From Deltaproteobacteria bacterium (GTDB lineage Bacteria > UBA10199 > DSSB01 > JACPFA01), in the NCBI GenBank assembly GCA_016183235.1, contig JACPFA010000026.1:33284-97283 (forward strand): a DNA stretch of 64,000 bases. Direction: 5' to 3'. Positions 1,997 through 62,608 of this stretch are shown in pieces. Position numbers and translations under genes: made by a program. Each line of letters starts with the position of its first letter. Position 1 is the first letter of the stretch. Below the pieces are notes generated by a model, which saw only the letters and a list, made by a program, of their open reading frames with translations, ran no database searches and had not been told where the DNA came from.

Positions 1997-3163
1997 TTAT
2001 TTTTTGGCGCGCATTTTTTGCACCTGTTGCAAGTTACCTTTAAAATCAGGATAAACTCGTGAGCCCTGTTTAAATTTTTCAAAGGCCGCTTTGGTTTTGC
2101 CTTCACTTAAATCAAGATGCCCTAGGTTGTAGAGGGCATAGGCCTCCCAGGCCGGGGCAGGTTTGTGTTGCAAAAACATTTCTAAAGATTTTCTCGCTTC
2201 TTGTGACCGTTTGAGTTTGAGCTGGCAATAGCCAATAAAGTAACGCGTCAAATAAATATCAGGATATTTTGTTTCCATCGCAGTGAACACTTGCAAGGCT
2301 TCTTGAAATTTGGCTAACCCAGTCAACATATTTCCTTTTAAAATTTGCGCCACCGCACTACCAGGATACGATTGCTCTAAGGTTTGGGCGATGCTCAAGC
2401 CTTTGGCGTAATTATGATATTCCCAATACACGAAAATGATGCCTGCCATAGCTAGGGGTTTGCCCACGCCACCTTTTTCAATGGCCAAATTCATTTTGCG
2501 AATCCCTTCTTGGCGCTGGTCTTTAAAAAAGGGCAAAAACTTGAACTTTTGCGTATAAACACTGCGCCAAAATTCATACATCCCCAACCCAAACCACGGA
2601 TCAAAAAAGTTAGGATCTTTTTGCACGCTCATTTGTAAGGCCTGCTTAGTATCGCCAGCTAGGCTTAAGGCCTTGAAGAGTTGGTCGGCCCGGATGTAAT
2701 AAAATGCCATTACCCCGCTAGAAGCCCCAGTGAGATAAAGGTCCCATGCGCTAGCATTAGGATCTTTTAAAATGACATCGTTGATGCTTTTAATTTTTTC
2801 GGTGATGGGTTTTAAACTGGTGTCTAAGCGAAAATCAAAATTTTCAAACATCTTGGATTGCAAAATCGCCATTTGCCCAAAAAGCCCCAACGGCGACTTT
2901 GGATATTTGTTTTCTAGGTTGTGAAAATAAGCCTCGGCCTCGGCGTATTTTCGATTTAAAACTAAATCGCGCCCGGTAATGGCGTCTTGGATGATTTCAG
3001 GGGTGGCCCCTTGGGGGATATAAATTTCGGCCCTTGCTAATTGAGGAGGGAGAAATAAGAAAAATAAAAGGAAGATTGCTTCGCTTGCGCTCGCAATGAC
3101 ACCTATATTAAAAAGGGATCTCTTCATAAGAGAAGTTGTGATGGATTTTAGATTTCGCTGCAA
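1997..3163 (-). CDS. exported TPR-repeat protein
   Basis: 388-aa ORF with repeated TPR-like helical units and a hydrophobic N-terminus ending LARA/EIY. The likelier start is ATG 3127 (MKRSLF...). Codons 3070-3103 of the signal region match the repeat family (VIASASEAI). Confidence 0.7.
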   Translation of the reverse strand: MQRNLKSITTSLMKRSLFNIGVIASASEAIFLLFFLFLPPQLARAEIYIPQGATPEIIQDAITGRDLVLNRKYAEAEAYFHNLENKYPKSPLGLFGQMAILQSKMFENFDFRLDTSLKPITEKIKSINDVILKDPNASAWDLYLTGASSGVMAFYYIRADQLFKALSLAGDTKQALQMSVQKDPNFFDPWFGLGMYEFWRSVYTQKFKFLPFFKDQRQEGIRKMNLAIEKGGVGKPLAMAGIIFVYWEYHNYAKGLSIAQTLEQSYPGSAVAQILKGNMLTGLAKFQEALQVFTAMETKYPDIYLTRYFIGYCQLKLKRSQEARKSLEMFLQHKPAPAWEAYALYNLGHLDLSEGKTKAAFEKFKQGSRVYPDFKGNLQQVQKMRAKK

Positions 3164-3312: not shown

Positions 3313-3936
3313 ATGAAACTCACCACGAAAATACTCAAAAAATTAGAGGCTATGTACCCTAGCTCCCATTGTGAATTGTACCATCAAAGCCCCTATCAAT
3401 TGTTAGTTGCCACCATTTTATCGGCCCAATGCACAGATAAACGGGTCAACATGGTAACTCCTGGGCTATTTAAAACCGCCCCCACCCCTAAGGCCATGTT
3501 AGAATTGAGGGAAAACCGCTTAATGGAAATGATCAAATCTTGCGGGTTTTACCGTACCAAGGCCAAAAATATCTTAAAAACCAGTCAGATCCTTTTAGAA
3601 AAATTTGGGGGGGAGGTACCACGCACCCAAGAAGAATTAATTCAATTACCAAGTGTGGGGCGAAAAACTGCCAATGTTGTACTTTACAATGCCTACGGGA
3701 TTGCCGCTATCGCGGTAGACACTCATGTCTTTCGAGTCTCTCAACGCCTAGGGTTGGCCAAGGGCAAGACCCCCGACCAAATTGAACAGCAACTCATGAA
3801 GGTGTTTGCCAAGCAAGATTGGGGCAAGGCCCATCATTTGCTTATTTTTCACGGTCGTTACCATTGCAGCGCACGCCGCCCCAAATGCGAAACTTGCCCC
3901 CTAACCGCTGAATGCCAGTATTATCAAACGCTATAA
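3313..3936 (+). CDS. nth: endonuclease III (DNA glycosylase/AP lyase)
   Basis: 207 aa with an HhH-GPD core (LPSVGRKTANVVL, VDTHVFRVSQRLGL) and the C-terminal 4Fe-4S Cys cluster C-x6-C-x2-C-x5-C (CSARRPKCETCPLTAEC). Confidence 0.92.
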   Translation: MKLTTKILKKLEAMYPSSHCELYHQSPYQLLVATILSAQCTDKRVNMVTPGLFKTAPTPKAMLELRENRLMEMIKSCGFYRTKAKNILKTSQILLEKFGGEVPRTQEELIQLPSVGRKTANVVLYNAYGIAAIAVDTHVFRVSQRLGLAKGKTPDQIEQQLMKVFAKQDWGKAHHLLIFHGRYHCSARRPKCETCPLTAECQYYQTL

Positions 3937-4347
3937 TTTGTAAATATTGTAGGTACCCATGGCCATGGCAATATCTTTCCCCTTATGCCGATAAACATGG
4001 GCTTCGGTAACGGCATGGGATTTACCACGGTATTTAACCTTCGCATCGCAATAGATAATTTCGTTTAATTTGACGGTTGAGATATAATTAATTTTAAATT
4101 CGATCGTTGAGCAACGCTCCCCTGCCTTTAGCCCGCTAAACAAACAAGCCCCCATAGAAAAATCAACAAAGGTAGAAATAACCCCACCATGAACCATCCC
4201 CGCAGGGCTGATATGCTTTGACTCGATTTTAAGGGAAGTCTTGGCAAAGTTTTCCTTGGCCTCAACAATTTCATAACCTACCAACTCGCCAAAATTATCT
4301 GGATGGGAGAATACCGCCGCGACCAACTGTCGATAATTTTTCACCAT
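3931..4347 (-). CDS. hotdog-fold thioesterase (PaaI/4HBT type)
   Basis: 138 aa with the motif PAGMVHGGVISTFVDFSMG typical of PaaI-family thioesterases. It converges on nth with a 6-nt overlap. Confidence 0.7.
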   Translation of the reverse strand: MVKNYRQLVAAVFSHPDNFGELVGYEIVEAKENFAKTSLKIESKHISPAGMVHGGVISTFVDFSMGACLFSGLKAGERCSTIEFKINYISTVKLNEIIYCDAKVKYRGKSHAVTEAHVYRHKGKDIAMAMGTYNIYKL

Positions 4348-4408
4348 AGAAGGCCAAATTAACCCAAGCCCCCAATAACGGCAAATTTATTTTAAATATC
4401 ACTGCACC

Positions 4409-4665
4409 TAAAAAGTTTTAGTGAAGAGGGCTAAGGGGTTGAGCTAGAATCCGCACCCGTAAAGCCTGCTCGGCTCAAAAAATTATTTATTTTTAATTGA
4501 ATTAGAGTATTCCTTCGTCATCCTCTAATTTCGTCATCCTCTAATTCAAAAAAATAATATAATTTTTTGAACCTCCGGAGCCTGTCCTGAGGCTTTGCGA
4601 AGGAGCTTTACTCCTGCTACAGGTTCTCAACATACCCCCTTAGGCCACTTCAGGAAGACTTTTTA
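4409..4665. repeat. F-type long hairpin element, copy 1
   Basis: The termini AAAAAGTTTTAGTGAAG...CTTCAGGAAGACTTTTT are inverted repeats. The interior holds smaller palindromes and a tandem tcgtcatcctctaatt x2. The termini match the element at 62609-62825. Confidence 0.7.
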
Positions 4666-4690
4666 TATCTCTGCAAATATTTGAGAAGAA

Positions 4691-4931
4691 GTCTTTTCGA
4701 GGTAGGGAGAGGCCAAGGGAGAGCCTTTTACCAGGAGGGCGGCCTATGATAGTTTCTGTCATTGCGAACTTAAGCGGGTGAAGCAATCTCTTCTGCCTAA
4801 GCGATGGGATTGCCACGCTCGCTATCATGGGTCCCCGCCTTCGCGGGGATGACACCGCTCGCAATGACAGAGGCCCTCATAGGCCGACCGGGCGCGGGCT
4901 CTCCATTGGCCTCTCCCTACCTCGAAAAGAC
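4691..4931. repeat. three-level nested palindrome (outer stem, then A-type element, then GC hairpin)
   Basis: The outer arms gtcttttcgaggtagggagaggccaagggagagcc / ggctctccattggcctctccctacctcgaaaagac enclose ggcctatga/tcataggcc. These enclose the ctgtcattgcga...tcgcaatgacag element (4756-4870), which in turn encloses atcatgggtccccgccttcgcggggatgacac (4824-4855). Confidence 0.85.
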
Positions 4932-4952
4932 GTGGTGTTAATTGTGAATGAA

Positions 4953-5002
4953 AGAAAAAAATACGTGGGGGATGGGCTGGGTGCCCTTTGGTATCCCCCA
5001 CG
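4953..5002 (-). terminator. Rho-independent terminator of the metalloprotease gene
   Basis: The minus strand has CGTGGGGGAT / ATCCCCCACG as a perfect 10-bp stem with a 19-nt loop, followed by a T-rich run (TATTTTTTT). It lies 30 nt after the stop at 5032. Confidence 0.6.
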
Positions 5003-5031
5003 CTTTGGACCTGGGATAAGGAGCTCTAAAT

Positions 5032-6690
5032 CTAGTTGGCCCTGATAACTACCCCCGATGCGGCGGCTCCACTCGGCCCTGATATAGCCACCTCGCTACC
5101 AGCGGATGAAACCTGAGTCCCGGTCATTTCAATGAAGAGACAGCTGGGTGAGTTCACACTACCTGACGTCGAAGACCCTGAGTAACTCGTCACCGCCGGG
5201 CCACTGAGCACCGTACCCCGATTATCATTTTGGCTACCGCGCAAATCGATCCCAGAAAAATCATAATTATTGTCACTCGACAGGCCAAGCCCGTCTAAAT
5301 AAACCGCTGAACAAAAATCTCTTAACAAATCTTGAAAACCTTCCCCCGTAACATCGGCAATATTATCGGTGCCGGTGTTGGCCCCGTTGATCAGCCCGCT
5401 CAACACCGCATCACCCGTGCTCACCCCACTGATATTGCCGTTGTTGGCCTGTTCATACAAATATCGTAAAAAGAGATAAGACCCACCCCGCTGCGTCAAA
5501 CTCGTGCCGCCGGTGAAGGCCACACTATTGATAGAATCTAAATACAAACTCACCCGTGAGGGGTTTTCTTCACTGACGTTCGCAAAACTATAGCTCGACC
5601 CCGACATATCCATATCTTCAGCAAAGTGGCTCATGGCTTCATTCAGCCAGCTAGCTTCCGAAGAATGCCCGTCAAAGAAGACCCGTTGGTTAAAATTGAT
5701 CAAATGCTGAAACTCGTGGGGCATGACCATGGGGCCAATGTTAGAGAGATAAAAACTCTTACTTAACGAAATCCCACTACAATAAAGATCGCCGCTGGGA
5801 TTGGGTGAAGCAATATAAATGATCGACCGCTCATTCGAGGCAGCAATTTGACTATCATCATATTGGTCGCCCCCATAAAAATAACCGGTGACAAAGCCGC
5901 CCCCACTGGCCCCCAAACAATTGACCACAGGCGACATGGCCACGGTAAACCGACACTCGCTGGCATGGTCCCAGTCGCCAAACACACTTTTTTCAGAGGC
6001 GATTTTATTGTCAAAAGCGGTAAATAATTCATCTAATTCAGCATCGCTGATGATGGAGCTGGTCACGAGTGAATCAACCGCAAATACTGCATTACTGGTG
6101 ACCTTCTTCACGGTTAAACTGCGGGTTGCAGTGCTGGAACCGCTGAGGCTGGTGAAAATTTTGATCGAAATGCTAGAATCGATCGAGGGCCCAGCACCAC
6201 AGTTGGTAACCGTTGGGTCAATCCCAACGGCAAAAGAGGCATCCCCTTGATTTTGGCTTGTGGTCACGGCGGCAATGATTTCTTCGCGATTGCGCAAGGT
6301 TTCGTGAAAGCTAGGGGTTAAATCGGGATTGGCATCTTCAAGGGTAGAAGCTGTGGCATCGGCCTCATGCAGAGAAAACGCCATGTCTTGTTCAAGAGAC
6401 GTATCGGCGCTGGTGGCGCCACTTAAGGTCCAGGAGAGGCTACCGGCATTGACATCGGCATTACTCAAACCAAAAACAAAAACCTCGCCCCCCGACAGGG
6501 CCCCAAACGTAACCGTGGCTTGATTAGAACTACCCAGATTAAGCACGACGACTTGACCCAGAGAGAAGCCTCCCCCCAAATTGTTATTGACGACCTCTCC
6601 CGAACCGCTCCCACAAGAAAGCCCAAACCAGGAAGAACAAACTGCCAAAATGAACCAGAAGCTAAAACGCTTCCTAAACCCCACAACCAT
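5032..6690 (-). CDS. secreted or lipoprotein zinc-metalloprotease candidate (HExxH)
   Basis: 552 aa with a signal or lipoprotein-like N-terminus (FWFILAVCSSWFGLSCGSG), a Ser/Gly/Thr-rich body and the motif MVMPHEFQHLINF (HExxH). Family is not assigned; an M30/hyicolysin-like guess is unverified. Confidence 0.6.
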   Translation of the reverse strand: MVVGFRKRFSFWFILAVCSSWFGLSCGSGSGEVVNNNLGGGFSLGQVVVLNLGSSNQATVTFGALSGGEVFVFGLSNADVNAGSLSWTLSGATSADTSLEQDMAFSLHEADATASTLEDANPDLTPSFHETLRNREEIIAAVTTSQNQGDASFAVGIDPTVTNCGAGPSIDSSISIKIFTSLSGSSTATRSLTVKKVTSNAVFAVDSLVTSSIISDAELDELFTAFDNKIASEKSVFGDWDHASECRFTVAMSPVVNCLGASGGGFVTGYFYGGDQYDDSQIAASNERSIIYIASPNPSGDLYCSGISLSKSFYLSNIGPMVMPHEFQHLINFNQRVFFDGHSSEASWLNEAMSHFAEDMDMSGSSYSFANVSEENPSRVSLYLDSINSVAFTGGTSLTQRGGSYLFLRYLYEQANNGNISGVSTGDAVLSGLINGANTGTDNIADVTGEGFQDLLRDFCSAVYLDGLGLSSDNNYDFSGIDLRGSQNDNRGTVLSGPAVTSYSGSSTSGSVNSPSCLFIEMTGTQVSSAGSEVAISGPSGAAASGVVIRAN

Positions 6691-6962
6691 AGAAAGCCCC
6701 TATCCCTTATTTGGTTTCGAGCTCCACGCCCCAGTGAGTTAGTTTGCAAGCTTCATACCCAAAGTTAAGACCTAATGAATTATTTTTTATTGAATAATTT
6801 CAAATAGATAGGATCGTCAATTTTGATGACGGAGGAAGACTGTGCAAGGTCATGGGTTAAAAAAAACCCATTTTATTGGGTTAGGCTTATCAAACACGAT
6901 GATTTTAAACAGGTTTTTATTTTAGTAGAATCTTACAAAAGTGGGGCAAAAAAGACTCTCTT

Positions 6963-7077
6963 CTGTCATTGCGAACCCAGCAGGGTGAAGCAATCTCTTC
7001 TGTTTAAGCGGTGAGATTGCCACGCTCGCTATCATGGGTCCCCGCCTTCGCGGGGATGACACCGCTCGCAATGACAG
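6963..7077. repeat. A-type composite palindromic element with a GC hairpin at its apex
   Basis: Near-identical to 4756-4870 (ctgtcattgcgaaccc...gattgccacgctcgct-atcatgggtccccgccttcgcggggatgacac-cgctcgcaatgacag). It ends 2 nt from the xseA stop codon. Confidence 0.9.
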
Positions 7078-7079
7078 AG

Positions 7080-8303
7080 TCACAATGACTTCACCATGGC
7101 ACTTATTTCCCCCTCCCCCAGCAATATTTGAAGCCCATCCCCCAGTTGCACGGCCGTGGCCTCACGAACCAAGACTTTTGACCCATCTTCTAACCACCGA
7201 TAGGTCAAACTATAGCCCCGTTGCAACACCGCCAAAGGCGAAACCAAGTGAATTTGCTCCGACAGGCTACGGAGATGCTGTTGGTGGGTTTTTAAAAAAT
7301 GCTCAATGGCACGATGCAAGCGAGCACTCCATTCATCGACCCTTAAGTTTAATTCTTCTAAACGCCGCGCCGGGTGTTTTAACCGTTGCACCAGGTGAGC
7401 CACCTTTTCTCGGTTCCAATGCAGCCACGCCTCCACCCCCCGTTGCAAACGGCTTTCGATGGCTTTTGCTTGTAAACGCAGTTCGGCTAAGTTGGGGGAA
7501 ATGAGCTCCGCTGCAGCACTGGGGGTGGGGGCCCTCAGGTCAGCCACAAAATCGGCAATGGTAAAATCGGTCTCATGCCCCACGGCGCTCACCACCGGAA
7601 TTTTAGAACGGGCAATGGCTTGAGCCACGATTTCAGTGTTAAACGCCCACAGATCTTCCAGCGACCCACCCCCGCGCCCCACAATCATCACTTCGGCTAA
7701 GCCATGTTCATTGATAAGGTCAATCGCCGCTGCAATTTCAGGCGCCGCTTTTTCCCCCTGCACATTCACCGGCACTAAAAAGAGATGCAGGCGTGGGTCA
7801 CGCCGGCTTAAAACATTAATAATATCTCGAATAACCGCACCCGTGGGGCTGGTCACCACACCAACATGCTTGGGGAATTTAGGCAAAGGCCGCTTGCGTT
7901 CTGCCGCAAAGAGCCCGGCCGCGGCCAATTTGGTTTTTAACTGTTCAAAGGCTAGCTGCAAGGCACCTAGGCCTTGTGGCTCGATGGATTCTACAACCAA
8001 TTGATATTTGCCCTGCGGTTCATAAAGAGAAATGCGGCCCAAACACAACATGGCCAAGCCATCTTCGAGTTTAAATTTCAACTGGCGATTGGCCCCCCGA
8101 AACATGACCACTGGCAAATGCGCACGTTCATCTTTGAGGGAAAAATAATAATGCCCACTGGAATGGGGACGAAAATTACTAATTTCGCCCGCCACCCACA
8201 CATGGGAAAAATTGCGTTCTAAGATTTTTTTTAATTCGCCAGTAAGTTCGGTGACGGTGTAAATATGCCGCTCTTCCGGAAGAGCGGAAAGTTCTAATTG
8301 CAT
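7080..8303 (-). CDS. xseA: exodeoxyribonuclease VII large subunit
   Basis: 407 aa. The N-terminal OB-fold segment (VWVAGEISNFRPHSSGHYYFSLKD), the catalytic core (VGRGGGSLEDLWAFN, GHETDFTIADFVAD) and the C-terminal coiled coil are typical of XseA. Confidence 0.92.
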   Translation of the reverse strand: MQLELSALPEERHIYTVTELTGELKKILERNFSHVWVAGEISNFRPHSSGHYYFSLKDERAHLPVVMFRGANRQLKFKLEDGLAMLCLGRISLYEPQGKYQLVVESIEPQGLGALQLAFEQLKTKLAAAGLFAAERKRPLPKFPKHVGVVTSPTGAVIRDIINVLSRRDPRLHLFLVPVNVQGEKAAPEIAAAIDLINEHGLAEVMIVGRGGGSLEDLWAFNTEIVAQAIARSKIPVVSAVGHETDFTIADFVADLRAPTPSAAAELISPNLAELRLQAKAIESRLQRGVEAWLHWNREKVAHLVQRLKHPARRLEELNLRVDEWSARLHRAIEHFLKTHQQHLRSLSEQIHLVSPLAVLQRGYSLTYRWLEDGSKVLVREATAVQLGDGLQILLGEGEISAMVKSL

Positions 8304-8346: not shown

Positions 8347-8490
8347 GTGTCATTGAGAAGGAGCGTCTGTCATTGCGAGGCCTGTGTGGGCGGCCTTCTG
8401 TCATTGCGAACCCAGCGGGGTGAAGCAATCTCTTCTGCCTAAGCGGTGGGATTGCCACGCTCGCCAACGGGGCTCGCTCGCAATGACAGA
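8347..8490. repeat. cluster of A-type palindromic elements (short-apex variant)
   Basis: Three gtcattg(c/a)ga units. The 8396-8490 copy has the apex aacgggg where other copies carry a 32-nt hairpin. It supplies the last ~15 codons and the stop of the 8439..9965 ORF. Confidence 0.85.
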
Positions 8491-11299: not shown

Positions 11300-12004
11300 G
11301 TGAACGATTGGTGGCAATACTTAAAAGGTGCTGAGCTACGTCTGAACTGGCTAATCGATCGCAGCCCCTTTGATACAAGCACGACGAATGTTTTTTCGAA
11401 CACCCATGAAATGAAAGATAGTAGCAAGCCTTCGGGTTTCGGCGTTGGTTATCTTCACAGTGTGGTGGGTAATCGCGATTTAATGGTGGGTGGTATGTTA
11501 GATTTTAATTGGTCCCACCCTCTGCTTAAGAACATTTATCTTGATGATGATGAGGATGGTGATGGTAAACCCGACTTTTGGAAAGCAAGCGAGGTTGAAG
11601 AATTTGTTTGGACGATCAAAGCCCAAGCCCTTTGGAATATCCCAGGAACCGTTGACCAATTTTATGAAGTAGGCCTGGCCGCATTCTTGGGCGGTGGAGA
11701 GCAAGCACTTACCTGTAATTGTGACACAGATGGCGGGATGGTACGTGAAGGGGTAGAATCCAGCGATTTCGTACTCCAAGCGGGAGCCGAATTGAGATTG
11801 CTTTGCGGTCTTTGGTTTATAGCTGTGGGGTTGGATCTTGTCTCTAAACCTATTTTTAATCGAGCAAATGCCGTTCTTGGGCACCCTAGCCAAAAAGTTG
11901 GCTATAATAATAATGGCGATAACCCTCCCTATCGAGTCACAACGGGAATCGACGTTATGGCCCTCTTTGGATTGGGTAAAGATGTTTATGATGCCCTTAA
12001 GTAA
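11300..12004 (+). CDS. hypothetical protein (MNDWW family, short paralog)
   Basis: 234 aa with a GTG start after AAAGAGG. By eye it is ~70% identical to the first ~230 aa of the next gene. An alternating hydrophobic pattern suggests beta-rich structure. No signal peptide is seen. Confidence 0.65.
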   Translation: MNDWWQYLKGAELRLNWLIDRSPFDTSTTNVFSNTHEMKDSSKPSGFGVGYLHSVVGNRDLMVGGMLDFNWSHPLLKNIYLDDDEDGDGKPDFWKASEVEEFVWTIKAQALWNIPGTVDQFYEVGLAAFLGGGEQALTCNCDTDGGMVREGVESSDFVLQAGAELRLLCGLWFIAVGLDLVSKPIFNRANAVLGHPSQKVGYNNNGDNPPYRVTTGIDVMALFGLGKDVYDALK

Positions 12005-12095: not shown

Positions 12096-13937
12096 ATGAA
12101 TGATTGGTGGAAAGGTTTTGAAGCACGTTTAAATTGGCAAGTTCACCGTAGCGACTTTGATACCAGCGATACGGGGGCTTTTTCGAACACCCATGTAATG
12201 GAGGATGGTGCCAAACCGTCAGGTTTCGGCATTGGTTATCTTCACAGTGTGGTGGGTAATCGCGATTTAATGCTGGGTGGTATGTTAGATTTTAATTGGT
12301 CCCACCCTTTGCTCATGGCCATTAATGATGATGATGGCAACCTTTGGAAAACAAGCGAACTTGAAGAATTTGTTTGGACCATCCAAGGCCAAATGCTTTG
12401 GAACATCACTGGCACTGTTGATAAATGGTATGAAATAGGCTTAGCAGCCTTTATAGCGGGTGGACAACAAGATCTTACCTGTAATTGCGACACGGGGGGT
12501 GGCAATTTACGTAAAGGCTTAGACTCCAGTAGTTTCGTACTCCAAACCGGATTAGAGCTTAGATTACTTCGTGGTCTTTTGTTTGTAAACGTAGGTTGGG
12601 ATGTGATTTCTGGACCCGGTTATAATCGAGAAGATGCCATTGAAGGCGCTCCCAGCCAAGGAATCGATTATAATAATAATGGTGATGATTCCCCAGTTCG
12701 AGTCAAAACAGGGATCGATTTTGGAGCCCTCGCTGGTTTGGGTAAAGATGTTTATGATGCCGCTAGTGGGATTAATGCACGCTATGAGGCAGATGACCGA
12801 AACCACGCTATTGTCCAGGTAAAAGATGCCCTTAGAAGGGTGAAAGATCAAATTGCAGAAGGGAACGGGTTAGTCGCATCTAATGTGAGCGGGGCAGAGG
12901 GCAAAGCTAATGGGGCAAGAGCCGATCTCTCAAGTGCTCAAGGAATCGCCAATTCAAACAATTTAGGCGAAACCGATTATCAAGACAGTGAGATTAATTT
13001 AGTAGCTATTGAAAGAGATCTCGCCACGCTTGACACCGCTATTGCTGCGGCCAAAGCCCGCGCAACTGCCGCTACTCCACGAACACCGTTAGACTTAAAG
13101 GGTGCGGATAATACTAGTGGAAGTACCGAACTAGGTCAGCTTGGTGTGGTAAAAAAAAAGTTTGAAGGTGACAGTGGCTACTTAGCCTTAATCACAGAAG
13201 ATACTTCCGTAGCTGCACGCCAAGTTTCCCTGGCTAGTGGGGGTGACACAACCCTAGCCAACACTCACCTCCCCATTGCTCGCGCTGCCCTAGAAAGCGC
13301 CCAACGAAGATATAGCGACGCTCTAGCTTACGCCAAAGAGGCCAACGACGGCGTCACCCAGTATTATTCAAGCAACGCCGCATACACCACCCTACGAGAT
13401 GCAATCCTCACTCACACCCGCGCCGCCCACGGTAATTTAAGCCGAGCCATTAACGAATACAATACTGCCATTACAGCCTATAATCGCCAGCCCGGCGTAA
13501 CCGCGATTGCAACGCTCAGCTCCCCCTCCCCCGAAGCCCCTCCCGCAGCCGCTGCTGCACGCACAGTAGCACCTCGTCGCGCTGAACCATCCAGACCCAC
13601 AGATTATAAAAGGGTTATCACTGGCCTACTCGACGCCGCAGATAAAAAAATTACCGACGCCAGGACCGCGCTAGAAAAAGATCCTAAAAGAGCCAAACAA
13701 CTCGCCCAGCAAGCCAAAGGTAATGCCACCCGAGCAGGTACCATTGCTAACAAACAAGGAATCACTGACTTTGATGCCCGGATCAAGACTGCTGGGTCTA
13801 CGGCCGTTGGAATCATTAACACCGCCAACGAAAAAATTGCCGTTGCGGCTGCTGCTGCCAAAACAAAGACTGCTGCTCCGGCTCAACCCGCCACCAACCC
13901 CCCAGCTGAACCCGAACCAGAACGCTCAGTGGAATAA
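12096..13937 (+). CDS. hypothetical protein (MNDWW family, long paralog with an Ala-rich helical C-terminal extension)
   Basis: 613 aa with an ATG start after AAGAGG. The N-terminal 230 aa are paralogous to 11300..12004. The C-terminal ~380 aa are Ala/Thr/Lys-rich and predicted helical by composition. Confidence 0.7.
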   Translation: MNDWWKGFEARLNWQVHRSDFDTSDTGAFSNTHVMEDGAKPSGFGIGYLHSVVGNRDLMLGGMLDFNWSHPLLMAINDDDGNLWKTSELEEFVWTIQGQMLWNITGTVDKWYEIGLAAFIAGGQQDLTCNCDTGGGNLRKGLDSSSFVLQTGLELRLLRGLLFVNVGWDVISGPGYNREDAIEGAPSQGIDYNNNGDDSPVRVKTGIDFGALAGLGKDVYDAASGINARYEADDRNHAIVQVKDALRRVKDQIAEGNGLVASNVSGAEGKANGARADLSSAQGIANSNNLGETDYQDSEINLVAIERDLATLDTAIAAAKARATAATPRTPLDLKGADNTSGSTELGQLGVVKKKFEGDSGYLALITEDTSVAARQVSLASGGDTTLANTHLPIARAALESAQRRYSDALAYAKEANDGVTQYYSSNAAYTTLRDAILTHTRAAHGNLSRAINEYNTAITAYNRQPGVTAIATLSSPSPEAPPAAAAARTVAPRRAEPSRPTDYKRVITGLLDAADKKITDARTALEKDPKRAKQLAQQAKGNATRAGTIANKQGITDFDARIKTAGSTAVGIINTANEKIAVAAAAAKTKTAAPAQPATNPPAEPEPERSVE

Positions 13938-14069: not shown

Positions 14070-14405
14070 TTAGGCATGCACTTCGTGATTTTCAAATTCC
14101 CTCTGTCTTACAAATTTAATTTCTAAGCGACATTTTAAAGCTTCAGCAACTTGCTGAAGTTTCTCTACAGAATTTCCCTCGTAATCTGCATCTTCCAATC
14201 TCGCAATAGCAGATTGCGAAGTCTTTAGCAGCTTTGCAAGGTCTTTCTGAGAGAGCCCAGCTTCCATTCTTAATTCGCGCACTTGTCTGGCAATTTGATC
14301 TTTTAACTTTTCTTCCTCATAGAGCCGCTGCCATTCGGGATCTTTTTCTATTCTTCGTTTTAGAATTTCTAAACCGTTTGTCGTTTTTCCCATATTGTTC
14401 TCCAT
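14070..14405 (-). CDS. higA: HigA-type antitoxin (XRE-family HTH)
   Basis: HTH motif LSQKDLAKLLKTSQSAIARLE. It lies downstream of the HigB/Gp49-like gene. The start is taken as ATG 14405, directly after AAGGAG (ATG 14393 is also possible); the track ORF extends to 14456. Confidence 0.75.
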   Translation of the reverse strand: MENNMGKTTNGLEILKRRIEKDPEWQRLYEEEKLKDQIARQVRELRMEAGLSQKDLAKLLKTSQSAIARLEDADYEGNSVEKLQQVAEALKCRLEIKFVRQREFENHEVHA

Positions 14406-14412
14406 TATCTCC

Positions 14413-14784
14413 TTAATTATTTTCAGAATAAGAATGAACTGCAGGATTTTTCTCAAAAGTAATTTTTCTTTTTAAGGCCAGCTCAATTTCTTTTAAAGGC
14501 ACCTTTGATGCTTGCTTAATAATTCCATGACTTAAAACAACTGCTTCTCTCCCATGAAAAAAATACAACAACCGATATTGAATGCCCCGAAGGTGCCACC
14601 GTAGTTCATAAATTCCATCTCTTAGAAAATCTGCTTCAGGACGTCGAAGCGCATTTCCTAATTCGGCAAGCCTATCTAATCTAACCTTGCCTTTCGCGCT
14701 CGCTTTCCTAGGGATCTCTTCCATAAATTCCAAAATTGGAACCGAGTTCCCTTCCTTGTAAAATATGATGTTAACAGCGCTCAT
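14413..14784 (-). CDS. higB: HigB / phage Gp49-like toxin (RelE/ParE superfamily)
   Basis: The sequence ...IIFYKEGNSVPILEFMEE...DGIYELRWHLRGIQYRLLYFFHGREAVVLSHGIIK matches the Gp49/HigB pattern. ATG 14784 is preferred over the TTG start of the track ORF at 14817. Confidence 0.75.
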   Translation of the reverse strand: MSAVNIIFYKEGNSVPILEFMEEIPRKASAKGKVRLDRLAELGNALRRPEADFLRDGIYELRWHLRGIQYRLLYFFHGREAVVLSHGIIKQASKVPLKEIELALKRKITFEKNPAVHSYSENN

Positions 14785-14826
14785 AGGAATTATCTCAAAT
14801 CTGAGGTTGTATTTCAAGGGAGAATA

Positions 14827-17277: not shown

Positions 17278-17322
17278 GTGAAGAAAATGCCTCCCCATCA
17301 TGGATCCCGGGTCAAGCACGAG

Positions 17323-17943
17323 ATGACGTGGATTGTAGTAACAATCGTTCTGTTTTGGATCTTTCCCGCCCATGCTCAAGAATTCCCCAAAGACCACGCC
17401 AAGGCCTTGGCCGAACTGAAAGCCGGCCACTACGAAAAGGCCTATGACTATTTTGAAAAGGCCCGCCTTCACACCACCGATGACGCAGAATTACTCAAAG
17501 ACATTGGAATTACGGCCACAATCTTAAAAAAATATGACGCGGCCAATACCCATTTGATGAAAAGCTTTAAACTCGACCCCGAGGATTTTCGCACCTATTT
17601 AGCGCTGTATGATTTAGCCAAAGCCCAAGGCCAAGTCGACCAACAACAACAGTGGGCAAACTTACTCACCGAACACTTCCCCAACCTTTATCTCGGCTAC
17701 GCCCTGCAAGGGTCAATGCTCGCCAAAGCCGGCAAACTAAAAGCGGCATTCGAAAAGTTTGAACAGGCCAAAGCCAAAAACCCCCAAGACCCTTACTTCG
17801 AAAGCGACCGCGCCTTACTTTTGGCCAAACTAGGCCAAAAAGACCAGGCTATTGAAATTCTTGAGAAATTGGTTAAAGAGGCCGGCAGCAAAGAACCGCT
17901 GTTTCAAAAAAACCTCGAACAACTCAAAGCCATAAACCCTTAG
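17323..17943 (+). CDS. exported TPR-repeat protein
   Basis: The ORF opens at 17278, but codons 17290-17322 are a repeat unit (catcatggatcccgggtcaagcacgagatgacg). ATG 17323 gives the signal peptide MTWIVVTIVLFWIFPAHA/QE. The body is TPR-like. Confidence 0.65.
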   Translation: MTWIVVTIVLFWIFPAHAQEFPKDHAKALAELKAGHYEKAYDYFEKARLHTTDDAELLKDIGITATILKKYDAANTHLMKSFKLDPEDFRTYLALYDLAKAQGQVDQQQQWANLLTEHFPNLYLGYALQGSMLAKAGKLKAAFEKFEQAKAKNPQDPYFESDRALLLAKLGQKDQAIEILEKLVKEAGSKEPLFQKNLEQLKAINP

Positions 17944-17966: not shown

Positions 17967-18119
17967 GGGGGGACCTCTAAAAAGGGCGTGAGATGCAAGG
18001 CGCCCGCAAAGGCGCGACCGGAGCGTATATGGAAATACGTGAGGATCGCGGCTTTGCGGGCAATCCTTCGCTTACGCTCTGGACAGGCTCTGCAGATGGG
18101 TCGTTTTTAGAGGTCCCCC
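17967..18119. repeat. D-type structured palindromic element, copy 1
   Basis: Terminal inverted repeats GGGGGACCTCTAAAAA / TTTTTAGAGGTCCCCC and an internal 15-bp stem (18002-18016 with 18047-18061). It is homologous to 56903-57028 and abuts the stop codon at 18120. Confidence 0.85.
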
Positions 18120-18596
18120 TTAATGAGTGGCATTTCTTTCTAACTGCTCCAAACGAGAATAAAGGTTCAACACATCTTGTTTGAGCGTAGTAATCTCTCC
18201 TTGTAACTCCCCTTTGGTAACATAATTTTTTTCAATGCGCTTGAGTTGCTCGTTGGCAAATAGATATTCCTGGCGCAGATCTTCGAATTTTTTGTAAAGA
18301 TCTTCAAAATGTTCATTCATTTCTTGGCGCAGGTCTCCCACCTCTTTTTTGATGATACCATGGATGTCAGGTTTAATAACTTTGTGATAATATTCTTCAA
18401 ATTGAATTAGATTCCCGGGCCGAATCACCTTCTGATAGTACTCACCAAACTGCTCAACATTAGCGGGCCGAATCACCTTTTGATAATATTCACTAAACTG
18501 TTCTAAATTAGCGGGCCGAATCACCTTTTGATAAAACTTCTCCAGCTGCGAAAGAGTAAGGGGGTTTTCTGTTTCTGTCTTTTTCTTTGGAGGCAT
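18120..18596 (-). CDS. coiled-coil protein with 15-aa tandem repeats
   Basis: 158 aa with four tandem copies of YYQKVIRPANxEQFxE (45-nt period, 18369-18545), followed by a heptad-like helical C-terminus. Confidence 0.6.
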   Translation of the reverse strand: MPPKKKTETENPLTLSQLEKFYQKVIRPANLEQFSEYYQKVIRPANVEQFGEYYQKVIRPGNLIQFEEYYHKVIKPDIHGIIKKEVGDLRQEMNEHFEDLYKKFEDLRQEYLFANEQLKRIEKNYVTKGELQGEITTLKQDVLNLYSRLEQLERNATH

Positions 18597-21237: not shown

Positions 21238-22121
21238 TCGACCTCAAGGCCTACCTGGCTAATCGCAAGACTCTCATCGAGGCCGCCTTAGAAAAATTTT
21301 TGCTCCCCACCACAACTTGGCCTACAAGTTTGCATCAAGCCATGCGTTATAGCATGATGGCGGGCGGCAAGCGCTTGCGCCCTATCTTGGTATTAGCAGG
21401 CTGTGAAGCGGTGGCTGGGGATATCGAGGTTGCCATTCCTACGGCCTGCGCCATGGAGATGATCCACACCTATTCGCTCATTCACGACGACCTGCCCGCC
21501 ATGGATGATGACGATTTGCGCCGCGGGCACCCCACCAATCACAAAGTTTACGGCGAGGCCATTGCAATTTTAGCCGGTGATTCATTACTCACCGAGGCCT
21601 TTAGCATGATCGCCAAAACGCCTATTCCATCTACACACACCGCTCAACTTTTAAAGGTCATTGCCTTGATTGCCGATGCGGCAGGGTCTGGTGGCATGGC
21701 GGGGGGGCAAGTGGTTGACCTCGAGAGTGAACATAAAAAAATTAGCGCTGAGGAATTAAAAAAAATCCATGTGCATAAAACCGGCAAATTAATTCAAGCC
21801 TCGGTGACGGCAGGGGCCATGCTGGGCAAGGGTTCGGAAGCACAAATTAACAACCTAGGCCATTACGGCATGAACATTGGGCTCGCCTTTCAAATCGCCG
21901 ACGATATTTTAGACATTGAAGGCGGTGAAGCGATTGGCAAAGATGTAGGCAGCGACCTCGCCAAAGAAAAATCGACCTACCCCTCTGTGCTAGGTATGGA
22001 AACTTCGCGCAAACTCGCCCATGATTTAATCGAGGAAGCCCTAGGCAACCTCCAAGGCTTCTCCGCCCATGCCGACCCCCTCCGGGCCATTGCTCAATAT
22101 GTCATTAGCCGTAAAAATTAA
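21234..22121 (+). CDS. ispA: farnesyl/geranyl diphosphate synthase
   Basis: 295 aa with the first Asp-rich motif LIHDDLPAMDDDDLRRG and the second FQIADDILD. Confidence 0.92.
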   Translation: MIDLKAYLANRKTLIEAALEKFLLPTTTWPTSLHQAMRYSMMAGGKRLRPILVLAGCEAVAGDIEVAIPTACAMEMIHTYSLIHDDLPAMDDDDLRRGHPTNHKVYGEAIAILAGDSLLTEAFSMIAKTPIPSTHTAQLLKVIALIADAAGSGGMAGGQVVDLESEHKKISAEELKKIHVHKTGKLIQASVTAGAMLGKGSEAQINNLGHYGMNIGLAFQIADDILDIEGGEAIGKDVGSDLAKEKSTYPSVLGMETSRKLAHDLIEEALGNLQGFSAHADPLRAIAQYVISRKN

Positions 22122-22558
22122 AGGAGAGGATTGACCACTTTTATTTTGGGGAATCGGTGCAGATCCGAATCTGCCGTATAAATGATAGAAATATCATGTT
22201 CTCTCATCAGGGCTACGTGATGGGCGTCGTGAATTAAATTCCCAACCAGTCGGAAATTCCACTTTGATAAGTCCCGCAAATAAGTAAGATGGTCCTCGGT
22301 TTCAGCCAAAATAGTAATGTTAGGAGCGGAAGAAAAAAAGACAACATTTTGTAAGGCCGCTTCAAGGGTTAAGGTTTGCCCCTTAAAAAGTTGGGGATGC
22401 GTCACAACCCTTAAATATTCATAAATGACTCCCCAACTAAAATACCATAAGTCATTTTCTTGAAGGCAATTTTTTAGAAAGTCCTTGGCCTTAGAATGTT
22501 CTGGAAAACTGGAATAAGTTGCATACACGAATAGGTTGGTGTCGATAAATGCCTTCAC
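22118..22558 (-). CDS. vapC: PIN-domain toxin (VapC family)
   Basis: 146 aa starting MKAFIDTNLFVYA (the first acidic PIN residue). It is conserved in position after a small antitoxin gene, and its 3' end overlaps the ispA 3' end by 4 nt. Confidence 0.8.
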   Translation of the reverse strand: MKAFIDTNLFVYATYSSFPEHSKAKDFLKNCLQENDLWYFSWGVIYEYLRVVTHPQLFKGQTLTLEAALQNVVFFSSAPNITILAETEDHLTYLRDLSKWNFRLVGNLIHDAHHVALMREHDISIIYTADSDLHRFPKIKVVNPLL

Positions 22559-22858: not shown

Positions 22859-23060
22859 GTAATGCTTCAGTCTTGCAGGGAGAGCGCTTGGGTTATTTCG
22901 TCAGCCGCGCTCCATCGGCGACCCTCATGGGGCTAGCCGGCACGGAAGCCTTCCGGTATAACCGGCTTTCCATGCCGGCTAACCCGCATGGGGGCCCCGC
23001 CGCTTCCGCGATGGCTTCCTCAACAACCCAAGCACTCTCCCTGCAAGACTGAAGCATTAC
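22859..23060. mobile_element. MITE-like palindromic element (E-type, copy 1) with an 8-bp target-site duplication
   Basis: 202 bp with terminal inverted repeats of ~36 bp and one mismatch (gtaatgcttcagtcttgcagggagagcgcttgggtt / aacccaagcactctccctgcaagactgaagcattac). It is flanked directly by CTTGATGC at 22851-22858 and 23061-23068. Confidence 0.8.
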
Positions 23061-23347
23061 CTTGATGCTAAATTGGATTTCAAAGCAAAATCTTCGTAAA
23101 TTGTCTTGCGAGCCCCTAAGGTGAGAATTTCGATTTGTTTTTCTTCCTCAGCCACACGGTATAAAACCCTAAAATGTTTGACGCGCAAGGATCTTAGACC
23201 CGTCAACTCTTTTTGCAGGGCTTTTCCCGCCCAAGGATCTGCCTGGAGGCTATCTAATGCCAACCGAATCAATGATTTTAAAACGGGATGTAATTGACGA
23301 ATGCGTAGTTTTGCCTCGGAGGTATAAATGAGATGAAACGCTCTCAA
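23057..23347 (-). CDS. RelE/ParE-family toxin
   Basis: 96 aa, ...DPWAGKALQKELTGLRSLRVKHFRVLYRVAEEEKQIEILTLGARKTIYE, the RelE/ParE pattern. The stop codon TAA is supplied by the terminus of the inserted element. Confidence 0.8.
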   Translation of the reverse strand: MRAFHLIYTSEAKLRIRQLHPVLKSLIRLALDSLQADPWAGKALQKELTGLRSLRVKHFRVLYRVAEEEKQIEILTLGARKTIYEDFALKSNLASR

Positions 23348-23613
23348 TCCTCAAAAACCTCTTGATGAGAATGCCAGTTTTTAGCACGGCTTTCTTTTAA
23401 GGCACGGTGCAAAGAACGGAGTAAGCTTTGGTCATGCAAAATTTCTAACGTCTCTAACAAACCCTCATATTCCTCAGGGCTCATTAAAATACCCGCGGCT
23501 TGCCCATCTTTCGTAATAGCCACTACACCCCCTTGATTTTGAAGAGACTTGAGCAGCTTCATTAGCTCTCGCTTAACTTGGGTCACAGGTAGAATTTTGT
23601 CGGAATGAATCAT
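23344..23613 (-). CDS. Phd/YefM-family antitoxin
   Basis: MIHSDKILPVTQVKRELMKLLKSLQNQGGVVAITKDGQAAGILMSPEEYEGLLETLEI is classic Phd/YefM. ATG 23613 (after AAAGGA) is preferred over the track start at 23670. Confidence 0.8.
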   Translation of the reverse strand: MIHSDKILPVTQVKRELMKLLKSLQNQGGVVAITKDGQAAGILMSPEEYEGLLETLEILHDQSLLRSLHRALKESRAKNWHSHQEVFED

Positions 23614-23778
23614 TTTAAAGTATCCTTTAAAGGGCCTTTTAAAGGTAAACTTTAAAGCATTCATTGTCAAGGTCTATCACAGAACTTTCATGGTTCTCAC
23701 GGTTCTCAAATTACACAACCCTTTTTTAAAATAACCGATAATTTAACTAGTTTGGGGTGGATTAACGAAGGGGTTTTT

Positions 23779-25938: not shown

Positions 25939-26208
25939 ATGAAATCGAACCTTAAACAAGACATTATCCCTGTAACGGAACTCATGCATCAGGCAGGAAG
26001 GGTTATCAAAAAAATTCGTCAAACTCGTAGGCCTATTTTAATTACTCAAAATGGCAGGGCCGCCATGGTTTGCCTGGACGTTCAAGAATATCAGGAACAA
26101 CTTAAACGGCTCGAAATGATTGATGCCATCCTCGCCGGCGAAACCGCATTTGCATGTGGTGATTTTTCAGAATGGAAAGATTTCGAAGTTCAACTCGATA
26201 AGATGTAA
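25939..26208 (+). CDS. Phd/YefM-family antitoxin
   Basis: 89 aa, IIPVTELMHQAGRVIKKIRQTRRPILITQNGRAAMVCLDVQEYQE. Its stop overlaps the next start by 1 nt. Confidence 0.8.
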   Translation: MKSNLKQDIIPVTELMHQAGRVIKKIRQTRRPILITQNGRAAMVCLDVQEYQEQLKRLEMIDAILAGETAFACGDFSEWKDFEVQLDKM

Positions 26209-26525
26209 TGAAAAGAAAAATCTTTCTCTCCAACCCTGCCCAAAAAGACATTGAGCGAATGATTCAGTACATTCGCCTCGACAAACCCATGGCTGCTGAG
26301 AAATTTAAAGTTCTCTTGAAAAACAAAATTAAATCTTTGGAAAATTTTGCTGAAAGAGGAAGAAAAGTTCCAGAACTTAAAGGAACTTTATTTGAGAATT
26401 ACCGCGAACTTATCATCACTCCTTGCCGCATTATTTATAAACTTCATTCAAAAGAAGTGCGAATTTTAAGAGTGTTACATTCAAAAAGAATCTTCTCCTT
26501 ATTTAGTACTCAAGGAATAACGTAG
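26208..26525 (+). CDS. ParE/RelE-family toxin
   Basis: 105 aa, LSNPAQKDIERMIQYIRLDKPMAAEKFKVLL...ELIITPCRIIYKLHSKEVRILRVLHSKR, the ParE plasmid-stabilisation pattern. Confidence 0.8.
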   Translation: MKRKIFLSNPAQKDIERMIQYIRLDKPMAAEKFKVLLKNKIKSLENFAERGRKVPELKGTLFENYRELIITPCRIIYKLHSKEVRILRVLHSKRIFSLFSTQGIT

Positions 26526-28858: not shown

Positions 28859-29125
28859 AATTTCATATCATTACAAAGCACATGTTTTCTGTCATTGCGA
28901 ACGATGTCATCCCCGCGAAGTATGCCCTCGACCCCGATCGGGGGGCGGGGACCCATGATACCGAGCGTGGCAATCCGACCAAAGGTCGTCCTGAGGCTTT
29001 AGCCGAAGGATCTCTTACAAACGAAGAGATCCCTCGCAAAACCTCGGGACAATGCTTCGCATTGGATTGCTTCACCCTGCTGGGTTCGCAATGACAGAGA
29101 ATAAAAGGCTCGCAATGACAAAAGA
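28859..29125. repeat. 267-bp mosaic of A-, GC-hairpin- and C-type repeat modules between two ATPase genes
   Basis: It contains ctgtcattgcgaac, gtcatccccgcg...cggggacccatgat, cgagcgtggcaatcc, the C module gtcctgaggctttagccgaaggatctcttacaaacgaagagatccctcgcaaaacctcgggac, and two tcgcaatgaca termini. Confidence 0.9.
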
Positions 29126-31158: not shown

Positions 31159-31252
31159 GGATCCCGGGCCTGCCCCGGACTTGGATCCGGGGTCAAGCCC
31201 GGGATGACGGGGGCACATCAATCCGGATCTAGCCCGGGATCCATAAATGACA
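31159..31252. repeat. two GC-hairpin repeat units between the permease genes
   Basis: catggatcccgggcctgccccggacttggatccggggtcaagcccgggatgacggggg...ggatctagcccgggatccataaatgac. Confidence 0.85.
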
Positions 31253-34003: not shown

Positions 34004-34383
34004 TTGTCACACTCCCATGATTGAAAATAAAAATGAAGTTGCACCTTCGGCCGTTTGAGCTTAAGCAACATGGAGTTTCCAGAAGATTGCCTCAAGAATA
34101 GATCCACCCATTCTTTGCGTTTTAATTTAAAACCAAAAATTTTTTTGAACTGCTTTTCATCGCCTTCAAACTGATAAAGAGTTTGGCCAAAATCGTCGAG
34201 CATTTCAAAGCGGATTTGATCGGGGGCCTGGGCTTCGATAACTAAATCAAAATGCAGCTTTTTCTTTTTCGCTTCTAAATCAACTTGGGCCACGGCCTTA
34301 ACGCCAAGACAGGCCACTGCGGGATCATCGCCCCAGGCGACCCCTGGCCAAACCAAGATCAAAGCTAATAAAAAACATGTCAT
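34000..34383 (-). CDS. small exported protein, function unknown
   Basis: The start is taken at ATG 34383 (MTCFLLALILVWPGVAWG/DD, a signal peptide). The upstream 62 codons of the track ORF are repeat sequence. It overlaps the SBP gene by 4 nt. Confidence 0.55.
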   Translation of the reverse strand: MTCFLLALILVWPGVAWGDDPAVACLGVKAVAQVDLEAKKKKLHFDLVIEAQAPDQIRFEMLDDFGQTLYQFEGDEKQFKKIFGFKLKRKEWVDLFLRQSSGNSMLLKLKRPKVQLHFYFQSWECDK

Positions 34384-34565
34384 TGCGCGGAACTCTGTCA
34401 TTGCGAACCCAGGGGACTCTCTGTCATTGCGAGCCCAACGGGCGTGGCAATCCCACCGGTTAGACGCAGAGAGATTGCTTCGCCCTGCTGGGCTCGCAAT
34501 GACAGAGAATTCCCTTGGCTCGCAATGACAGAGAATTCCCTTGGTTCGCAATGACAGAATAAAGC
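34384..34565. repeat. array of gtcattgcga / tcgcaatgac units, including a 26-bp tandem repeat
   Basis: Three forward and three reverse termini. ctcgcaatgacagagaattcccttgg is repeated in direct tandem with no spacers. Confidence 0.9.
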
Positions 34566-62466: not shown

Positions 62467-62581
62467 TTAATTTAAAATAAACCTATTTAATTGGATTTAC
62501 GTTGGATTGAGATACACACCTTTTATCGTAATCCAAAATTTTTAGCAACAAAAATATACATGTAATATAATGTATGTCATC

Positions 62582-62597: not shown

Positions 62598-62608
62598 CAA
62601 CTCGCTCA

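Follow-up and report, generated by a model that had tools for sequence, protein, structure and literature searches.

Here, we report that the 684-bp gap between a thioesterase-family gene and the gene of a 552-aa protein, located near the beginning of the stretch of DNA shown above (64 kb in total, hereafter the window), appears to be a mosaic of non-autonomous palindromic repeats of the REP (repetitive extragenic palindromic) class, built by serial nesting of modules in the loops of hairpins; we put the probability of this reading at about 60%. The gap is an unusually deep example of known selfish or regulatory repeat DNA and not a new kind of element. Two tandem hairpins, F (4405-4665) and H (4691-4931), are separated by a 20-bp half-palindrome and carry other hairpin modules at each apex; inside H there is an A-type doublet, the right unit of which bears a CGTC-1 REP at its own apex. 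The locus was compared with that of a relative represented by groundwater metagenome contigs, whose homologue of the 552-aa protein is 95% identical and whose DNA is about 88-90% identical to the window. The contigs of the relative and the matches in species genomes are numbered as loci L002-L136, among which L002 and L003 are two separate assemblies of the relative that agree with each other. The features of the locus are as follows.

4405-4665, plus strand: F-type hairpin with arms at 4409-4438 and 4636-4665 and a mosaic interior (fold z-score of -8.8).
4472-4573, no strand: AT-rich palindrome inside F (GGCTCAAAAAATT...AATTTTTTGAACC) with a duplicated TCGTCATCCTCTAATT, recognized from two inverted repeats.
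4579-4623, plus strand: small hairpin module (GCCTGTCCTGAGGCTTTGCGAAGGAGC...) inside F, family D18, matched by 54148-54176 at 90% and by 29027-29051 at 84%.
4662-4681, plus strand: 20-bp unit TTTATATCTCTGCAAATATT, half of a palindrome whose full form is found in the relative (CTCTGCAAATATTTGCAGAG).
4691-4931, no strand: outer hairpin, long variant of the H family, with arms at 4691-4725 and 4897-4931; the empty copies have their loop where this one has TTTTACC (4726-4732).
4733-4749, plus strand: left half of the second stem level, AGGAGGGCGGCCTATGA, an inverted repeat pairing with 4877-4896.
4754-4872, no strand: A-type element, made of two TGTC-tagged units in inverted orientation; its ends are CTGTCATTGCGA (4756-4767) and TCGCAATGACAG (4859-4870), and its central spacer is at about 4791-4806.
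4757-4790, plus strand: left A unit from the unit scan, with head TGTC, stem ATTGC...GCAAT, and tail CTC.
4806-4869, minus strand: right A unit from the unit scan, whose apex holds a nested GC unit; this composite is recurrent.
4828-4854, minus strand: GC hairpin, a CGTC-1-type REP, reading TGTC-ATCCCCGC-GAAG-GCGGGGAC-CCA.
4877-4896, plus strand: right half of the second stem level, TCATAGGCCGACCGGGCGCG, an inverted repeat; a copy in the relative (L136) reads ...GGAGAGCCCGCGCCCGGTCGGCCTA and then enters a different module.
4950-5002, minus strand: hairpin (4964-5002) with a U-run behind it, probably the intrinsic terminator of the 552-aa gene, identified from an inverted repeat and an RNA fold, and situated outside the repeat mosaic.

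All the inverted repeats claimed by the initial annotation of this DNA exist, i.e., 4691-4725 pairs with 4897-4931 (35 nt, 97% complementary), 4737-4767 with 4859-4889 (31 nt, 84%), and 4409-4438 with 4636-4665 (30 nt, 83%). Folding as single-stranded DNA (ssDNA) and as RNA, which the annotation had recommended as a check, gave structures far more stable than those of shuffled sequences: the ssDNA fold of 4686-4936 has -90.7 kcal/mol versus -40.4 +/- 3.8 for the shuffles (z -13.3), that of 4405-4670 has z -8.8, and the RNA fold of the whole gap has z -12.8. Nesting in three levels had been proposed; the nesting is real, but the stem 4733-4749/4877-4896 can be counted as a level of its own, which makes four levels at this locus, and possibly five are reached elsewhere in the window. 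The gap had also been described as containing essentially only nested palindromes, which is too strong, as about 157 bp of the 684 bp are non-repeat, namely 4348-4404, upstream of the thioesterase gene, and 4932-5031, which contains the apparent terminator of the 552-aa gene.

At the orthologous site of the relative, past the 552-aa gene and its terminator, the same composite is found in the order F-type hairpin, 20-bp unit, and outer hairpin; there, the outer hairpin is simple, being 78 nt long with a loop of 7 nt (TTTGCTC) and enclosing no further element. A pattern scan of Joint Genome Institute (JGI) metagenome contigs retrieved seven true composite copies, all from the sample of the relative. 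The hairpin is empty in five of the scan matches (L129, L130, L133, L134, and L135, with L130 coinciding with the second copy on L002), and the distinct empty copies in the relative, including the one at the orthologous site, number six and are 77-79 nt long. In L136, the first hairpin is interrupted at the 3' loop edge by some 70 nt of unrelated sequence. The second hairpin of L136 and that of L131 are of the long variant seen in the window, with a second stem level (GGCGGCCTA/TAGGCCGACC, found on the left side in L131 and on the right side in L136) that the short empty copies do not have; their apex is occupied by an AT-rich palindrome, i.e., the module of window positions 4472-4573, in place of the A-type element. 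The same palindrome is also present inside the F-like element of L131, and L136 is 98% identical to window positions 4880-4931. The same outer hairpin thus occurs empty and with three different occupants, i.e., the A-type element with its GC hairpin, the AT-rich palindrome, and the ~70-nt insert. Nesting is reciprocal as well: in the relative, an A-like element that has GTCATTCTGA as its ends holds a whole composite of F, unit, and H in its central spacer.

The outer hairpin belongs to a lineage-specific hairpin family, with at least nine copies besides that of the window, most of them empty. Its stem has no second copy within the 64-kb window, so the suggestion that each level recurs elsewhere in the window holds for the A-type element, the GC hairpin, the 20-bp unit, and F, but not for the outer stem. 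In an alignment of eight outer-hairpin copies, 94% of the stem positions are paired and 12 of 32 pairs are compensatory, values that none of 500 shuffles reached; please note that the L136 loop was simplified in this alignment by removing the insert, which leaves the pairs unaffected.

The A-type element consists of two units with their heads facing outward and a variable spacer between them, and it folds as a whole: the mean fold energy is -37 kcal/mol for whole elements versus -10 for halves folded separately. Its end CTGTCATTGCGA occurs 24 times in 64 kb versus 0.27 expected. The copy at 6961-7079 is 92% identical to that at 4754-4872 with common boundaries, the copy at 8396-8490 has the same ends, and the GC unit 4822-4854 is 97% identical to 33944-33976; when the junctions are mapped in this way, as the initial annotation had advised, the modules are discrete and share their boundaries with other copies. 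The flanks abutting the A-type element (TAGTTT and AGGCCC) are unique to this locus. The composite of an A unit with a nested GC unit has at least seven copies in the window with the same geometry and differing GC stems, and in seven of the seven composites the GC unit is at the apex of the A unit; segments 4820-4858 and 7027-7065 are 100% identical. The GC hairpin had been placed at the apex of the A-type element. It is real and lies inside the element, but off-centre, at the apex of the right-hand A unit and in the same orientation as that unit, while the centre of the element is at about 4791-4806. Extra A-type ends are stacked at 34378-34565 (three left and three right ends with ~26-bp spacing around one core), three left ends stand ahead of the 8396 copy (8350-8410), and similar tandem ends are seen beside elements in other phyla (L014, L035, L049, L066, L110, and L120).

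The A-type element is not confined to this lineage. In a species-wide scan with one genome per species, in which the two 12-nt ends were required to be 61-91 nt apart, at least 120 stretches were found, and the matches listed (L009-L128; phyla by record titles) come from at least about 18 phyla. Among these matches are Proteobacteria (Alpha-, Beta-, and Gamma-), Chloroflexota, Bacteroidota, Gemmatimonadota, Planctomycetes, several Patescibacteria groups, Elusimicrobia, Omnitrophota, Latescibacterota, KSB1, Caldithrix, Campylobacter, a Eubacteriales genome, Bdellovibrionales, sulfate-reducer lineages, and a Verrucomicrobia-type genome ('Moanabacter', our own assignment), and they include the isolates Hymenobacter, Flavobacterium, and Flexilinea. 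A second box, GCAATC (GATTGC in inverse), is present in 108 of the 122 elements among the matches listed; as this box recurs although it was absent from the search pattern, the A-type elements are one family. Between the boxes the elements have segments that vary across phyla and often contain mini-hairpins of their own. The A-type consensus was found in 4 of 72,556 plasmid records, and the focal hairpin had no match in phage records. Direct repeats beside 120 A-type elements are no commoner than in mismatched-flank controls, and no target-site duplications are visible at the copies in the window; this fits a mechanism without target duplication.

The GC hairpin is, on sequence grounds, assigned to the known family CGTC-1 (Di Nocera, De Gregorio & Rocco 2013, BMC Genomics 14:522, PMC3733652), which takes in RPE-6 of Rickettsia and dRS3 of Neisseria and is defined by a CGTC head (variants TGTC and CCTC), a stem of 8 bp that opens with the pairs A-T and T-A, a loop of 4 nt, and the tail CCA. 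On the minus strand, TGTC precedes the stem; ATCCCCGC/GCGGGGAC form seven perfect pairs with an A-C mismatch at the first position, and the copy at 33944-33970 has a perfect 8-bp stem (ATCCCCGC/GCGGGGAT); GAAG forms the loop and CCA(TGA) the tail. The GC unit translates to VIPAKAG, and the opposite strand to ...PRLRGDD. Peptides of CGTC-1 copies in the supplement of PMC3733652 are VIPAKAGI, SFPRKRES, DSRFRGND, and DPGLRRDD; the likeness to published members extends to the sequence level. The core of the GC hairpin occurs four times in the window versus 0.12 expected, with copies at 7040-7060 and 33945-33965. Head-to-head dimers, a typical and not a strict trait of CGTC-1, are not seen among the GC units of the window, which are all single: seven copies share the orientation of the A unit in which they are nested, and others are solo (31158-31209 and 17296-17330). 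Some GC units have a further small hairpin within their loop, e.g., at 18690, 1924, 31158, and 28905.

In the CGTC superfamily as a whole, a unit has a head, a stem of 8-9 bp with A-T first, a loop of 4-5 nt, and a tail (PMC3733652). The A unit has a TGTC head, a stem with ATTGC first, and a CTC or CCC tail, but its perfect stem is only 5 bp and its interior is 13-70 nt. The ATTGC/GCAAT sequence was not found in the text or supplement of PMC3733652 (Figure 2 was not covered), and a literature search by DNA strings and encoded peptides found no published description of the A-type element by sequence. We treat the A unit as a putative relative of the CGTC-tagged REPs and not as a member of the four published families.

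The F-type hairpin is followed by the 20-bp unit, as the initial annotation had stated, and both recur in the window. The F arms are found again at 62607-62638 and 62797-62824, and also in the contigs of the relative; this second F copy (62607-62824) is followed by two tandem 20-bp units. The unit has four matches in the window with no more than three mismatches (one on the opposite strand) versus none expected, and in every copy of the relative it stands between the F-type and the outer hairpin. Compared with three copies of the relative, the second F copy contains a clean 47-nt hairpin insert (~62726-62776) with flanks that are 94-97% identical, and paired compensatory changes were seen by eye in the inner hairpin of F. 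A homology between the F and H arms was considered, with a suggestive signal (z up to 6) for some copies; it is absent for the pair in the window itself and was not relied on.

The second F copy is part of another repeat-filled gap of ~710 bp (62467-63177), between a 270-aa open reading frame (ORF) and a gene with MnmG/GidA C-terminal domains, which contains the F-type hairpin with its 47-nt insert, two tandem and one inverted 20-bp units, and then a repeat (62854-63043) that is also found at 22903-23027, L129, and L135. The F copies of window positions 62607-62841 and of L130, L134, and L002 are 92-97% identical, and the flanking protein-coding genes 88-90%; the higher identity of the F copies suggests recent spread, exchange, or strong constraint on the repeat.

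How could such a structure come about? HUH transposases of the IS200/IS605 group and the REP-linked RAYTs act on folded single strands. We propose that pre-formed hairpin modules would be added repeatedly into the unpaired loops, or at the loop/stem edges, of existing hairpins; loops would serve as entry sites because they stay single-stranded when the DNA is unwound or extruded, and a single-strand, hairpin-recognizing enzyme of the HUH (IS200/IS605 or RAYT) type would fit. After arrival, compensatory changes preserve the stems of the copies, which turn over fast between related genomes. Inserts are indeed seen at unpaired positions, i.e., at the 3' loop edge in L136 and in the long variant of the window, and at the same position in the GC unit at 28905. 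That the modules arrived by insertion rather than by recombination, that loops are preferred, and that the enzyme is of this type, we infer from these observations.

Several points weigh against this reading. The composite of A and GC units recurs and 4820-4858 is identical to 7027-7065, so A and GC reached the locus as one pre-formed block, and there were fewer events than levels here. Flanks that lengthen the palindrome by at least 7 nt are found at 7.5% of the A-type elements across phyla versus 0.7% of the controls; nesting of A-type elements in an outer palindrome is enriched and is not the rule. Of the ORFs in the window, 20 of small or medium size were searched, and none has a Y1/HUH domain (the larger ORFs were not scanned). 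The ORFs beside the copies of the relative, which from their first residues look like ordinary housekeeping genes, were listed and checked only for an HUH-like motif, with no Pfam scan, and no transposase was found. Among pairs of ends 400-4000 bp apart in 967 kb, no parent element with the same ends stood out in a comparison of coordinates only, the intervals not being inspected for ORFs. CGTC repeats are likewise described as having no dedicated transposase (PMC3733652).

The comparison with the relative, one related population being available, brings further points on the same side. Its orthologous hairpin is of a different subfamily (~82-84% identity, confined to the unit plus 23 nt at the start of the arm), and the gene past the repeats is LGT in the relative versus the thioesterase gene in the window. 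Because both the subfamily and the downstream gene differ, the window and the relative are not a simple filled/empty pair; the whole composite has been replaced, or the region rearranged, between the two, and replacement by recombination could therefore explain this difference. Gene order, for its part, breaks exactly at the repeat mosaic (L002 3957-4436 vs window 4348-5031). The orthologous locus, which the initial annotation had wished to see, therefore offers an outer hairpin that lacks the inner levels, but one of another subfamily beside another gene. The initial interpretation is borne out in its core and mistaken in some details; serial insertion into loops is favored by the discrete modules and by the empty and differently filled outer hairpins, and weakened by the arrival of A and GC as one block and by the lack of a simple filled/empty pair. 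Clean empty A-type sites at 6961 and 8396 were considered in the relative and ruled out: the 6961 copy is absent there, with the junction blurred by divergence, and the 8396 site has a different, hybrid and truncated element.

Recombination or gene conversion (homologous, illegitimate, or by template switching) among similar palindromic repeats, which would shuffle modules with no dedicated transposition, is the alternative that survives best, and we consider it unlikely rather than remote. It would account for the different F, unit, and H subfamily and the different downstream gene at the orthologous locus of the relative, for the outer arm of the window being closer to the copy at another locus (L136) than to the orthologous copy, for the hybrid element in place of an empty site at 8396, for the extra tandem ends at 34378-34565 and 8350-8410, and equally for the missing target duplications. 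Recombination alone, however, leaves unexplained why the inner modules are placed at loops and apices, how an F copy with 94-97% identical flanks gained a clean 47-nt hairpin, why the A-type architecture is spread over so many phyla, and why each module has a high copy number.

That the array is one functional element selected in place, i.e., a transcription insulator, an mRNA 3'-end stabilizer, or a protein-binding platform formed by a long RNA or DNA hairpin, seems improbable to us. Its fold is very stable, its stems are kept by compensatory changes, A units in the window often begin 4-16 nt past stop codons, and REP-class repeats are described as affecting termination and mRNA stability (PMC3733652). 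Yet the relative does without the inner levels at the same site, even though the adjacent terminator is almost identical, each level is a dispersed family with its own boundaries, and the array lies past the apparent terminator. No T-run follows any of the nested hairpins when the sequence is read, so they do not resemble intrinsic terminators, and a simple terminator scan of 4250-5100 returned no terminator-like site; promoter-like sites numbered 1 versus 0.9 in shuffles, i.e., no excess. The covariance models of Rfam 15, run over the entire window, gave no match at the gathering score, and at E values up to 10 the two mosaic regions gave chance-level hairpin matches only.

We also considered an assembly artefact, in which the order in 4516-4907 would be a chimeric join at palindromic repeats, and regard it as quite improbable. 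This segment has no independent assembly, which is a further point against our reading: short-read contigs of the same population, 100% identical to the window, end in the apex of the AT-rich palindrome (4515) and within the right arm (4908), and when three spurious ORFs that cross the junctions were looked up by exact match, no additional contig came up. A de Bruijn assembler is expected to break at palindromes, so such ends are no sign of error; both arms of every level are in the correct order and register, which would be rare for a random mis-join, equivalent nested arrangements exist in the independently assembled contigs of the relative, and the immediate flanks of the A-type element are found at no other locus. 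Outward growth of a small palindrome, by fold-back priming or inverted duplication of its flanks, could draw on the roughly tenfold excess of A-type flanks extending the palindrome across phyla, but it is largely excluded by the empty outer hairpins, because the outer arms are not specific to this locus: they recur in at least nine further copies, mostly empty, and enclose inner modules of unrelated kinds.

Serial nesting of REP-class modules, our preferred reading, has several relatives among the known systems. The GC hairpin is like the CGTC-1 REPs in head, stem, loop, tail, and peptides, and likewise no transposase gene was found beside it (20 window ORFs). The CGTC-1 REPs are mostly head-to-head dimers with a mostly alphaproteobacterial host range (PMC3733652), whereas the GC units here are single, at the apex of another tagged unit, in an uncultured lineage labelled 'Deltaproteobacteria'. 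The A-type element joins two short hairpin units in inverted orientation, and the doublet folds into a single long hairpin, as in the case of REPINs, which reportedly are REP doublets forming hairpins and mobilized by RAYT transposases. The link between REPs and RAYTs is summarized in PMC3733652. Single A units look like remnants, and paired stem changes (shown for the H family) and the lack of target duplications are further likenesses. The differences are that the heads here are TGTC or CGTC and not GTAG, that the A-type heads face outward, and that no RAYT gene was found (20 window ORFs; 64 kb of genome). REPIN sequences are usually species- or genus-specific, unlike the A-type ends, which are common to at least about 18 phyla among the matches listed.

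Mosaic intergenic clusters, e.g., the BIMEs of Escherichia coli, the Neisseria clusters with dRS3, and the RIMEs of Rhizobium, are mainly side-by-side arrays. Such clusters resemble our locus in that an intergenic region consists of several palindromic families in a recurring order (here F, unit, and H), and they differ in that the modules here are nested in each other's loops instead of side by side. The Neisseria mosaic repeat clusters are mentioned in PMC3733652, and the same paper describes REP dimers 'inserted within' longer palindromes, i.e., CGTC-1 in H. neapolitanus, GTAG-15 in A. variabilis, and GTAG-23 in T. roseum, where, as here, a tagged REP at the centre of a longer palindrome recurs with it; this speaks in favor of our reading. 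For H. neapolitanus and A. variabilis, the target palindrome was never found empty (PMC3733652), whereas the outer hairpins of the relative are mostly empty, and the nesting here is recursive and reciprocal with varying apex occupants. The four-level depth, the empty or alternatively filled outer hairpins, the reciprocal nesting, and the breadth of the A-type element are new beyond PMC3733652.

Bacterial miniature inverted-repeat transposable elements (MITEs), e.g., Correia, RUP, and QMITE1/2 of Coxiella (PMC5896051), are likewise short, non-coding, dispersed elements with terminal inverted repeats and strong secondary structure, frequently placed at gene ends and occasionally overlapping ORFs. 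The A-type element has terminal inverted repeats of 12-14 nt (CTGTCATTGCGA/TCGCAATGACAG). MITEs have target-site duplications, of 2-11 nt in QMITE1/2 (PMC5896051); here, none were seen (120 A-type elements and the window copies), and the coordinate listing pointed to no parent insertion sequence that shares these ends.

The genes on both sides of the gap are on the minus strand. The thioesterase-family gene (3931-4347) matches Pfam 4HBT, and the 552-aa gene (5032-6690), annotated initially as a metalloprotease, encodes an HEFQH motif; its product had no match in a Pfam search. The hairpin 4964-5002 together with a minus-strand T-run is likely the terminator of the 552-aa gene; it was missed by the simple terminator scan because its loop exceeds 8 nt. 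The terminator of the relative is near-identical to it, with one mismatch in the run before the hairpin, and everything beyond differs.

The repeats also touch the ends of genes elsewhere in the window. Heads of units lie 4-16 nt past a same-strand stop codon, head first, in 6 of 27 cases versus ~1.5 expected (rough binomial P ~0.004); these six heads are at 1990, 7076, 18753, 29120, 34556, and 54531 (minus strand). In two further genes TGTCAT directly follows the stop codon (TAA-TGTCAT at 18769 and TGA-TGTCAT at 31253). REPs of E. coli within ~15 nt of stop codons affect translation. The last codons and the stop of XseA (..KSL*) are GTCATTGTGA, a near copy of an A-type end (7080-7095), and the relative has ..KPG*. 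A complete A unit (3072-3101) is found inside the predicted N-terminus of a TPR protein (ORF 1997-3163), where it encodes ..GVIASASEAIF..; the true start of this ORF may be downstream.

Other repeats in the window include an 84-nt repeat (family D11, 17980-18063 and 56913-56996) with 81% identity and no Rfam match at the gathering score, the adjacent stretches 11324-11859 and 12111-12625 (D1 and D3), which are 72-81% identical and overlap neighbouring ORFs, and a 48-nt tandem repeat (D5) in three overlapping copies (18375-18563) inside ORF 18120-18596. Toxin-antitoxin-type genes are located at 14070-14817, 22118-22558, 23344-23670, 26208-26525, and 45364-45789, and comprise a Gp49-like protein with a helix-turn-helix (HTH) partner, two PIN-domain proteins, a Phd/YefM antitoxin, and a ParE toxin.

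Repeats of this kind break short-read assemblies and give rise to spurious ORFs, and they can alter the ends of genes, as in the last codons of XseA. The CGTC-type REPs have no dedicated transposase (PMC3733652), and what mobilizes them has been a question since their definition. Taken together, the copies that are empty, differently filled, or reciprocally nested suggest that new modules are received at hairpin loops. A broader and rather doubtful possibility is that the TGTC/CGTC hairpins, including the A-type element, form one widespread transposase-less system that would insert into single-stranded loops via an enzyme, maybe a conserved one of the host; if this is true, the nested stacks would record target preference and polarity, i.e., the 3' loop edge and an inner unit oriented as its host unit. 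If loop targeting is confirmed, the search for what mobilizes these repeats would narrow to enzymes acting on single-stranded, folded DNA.

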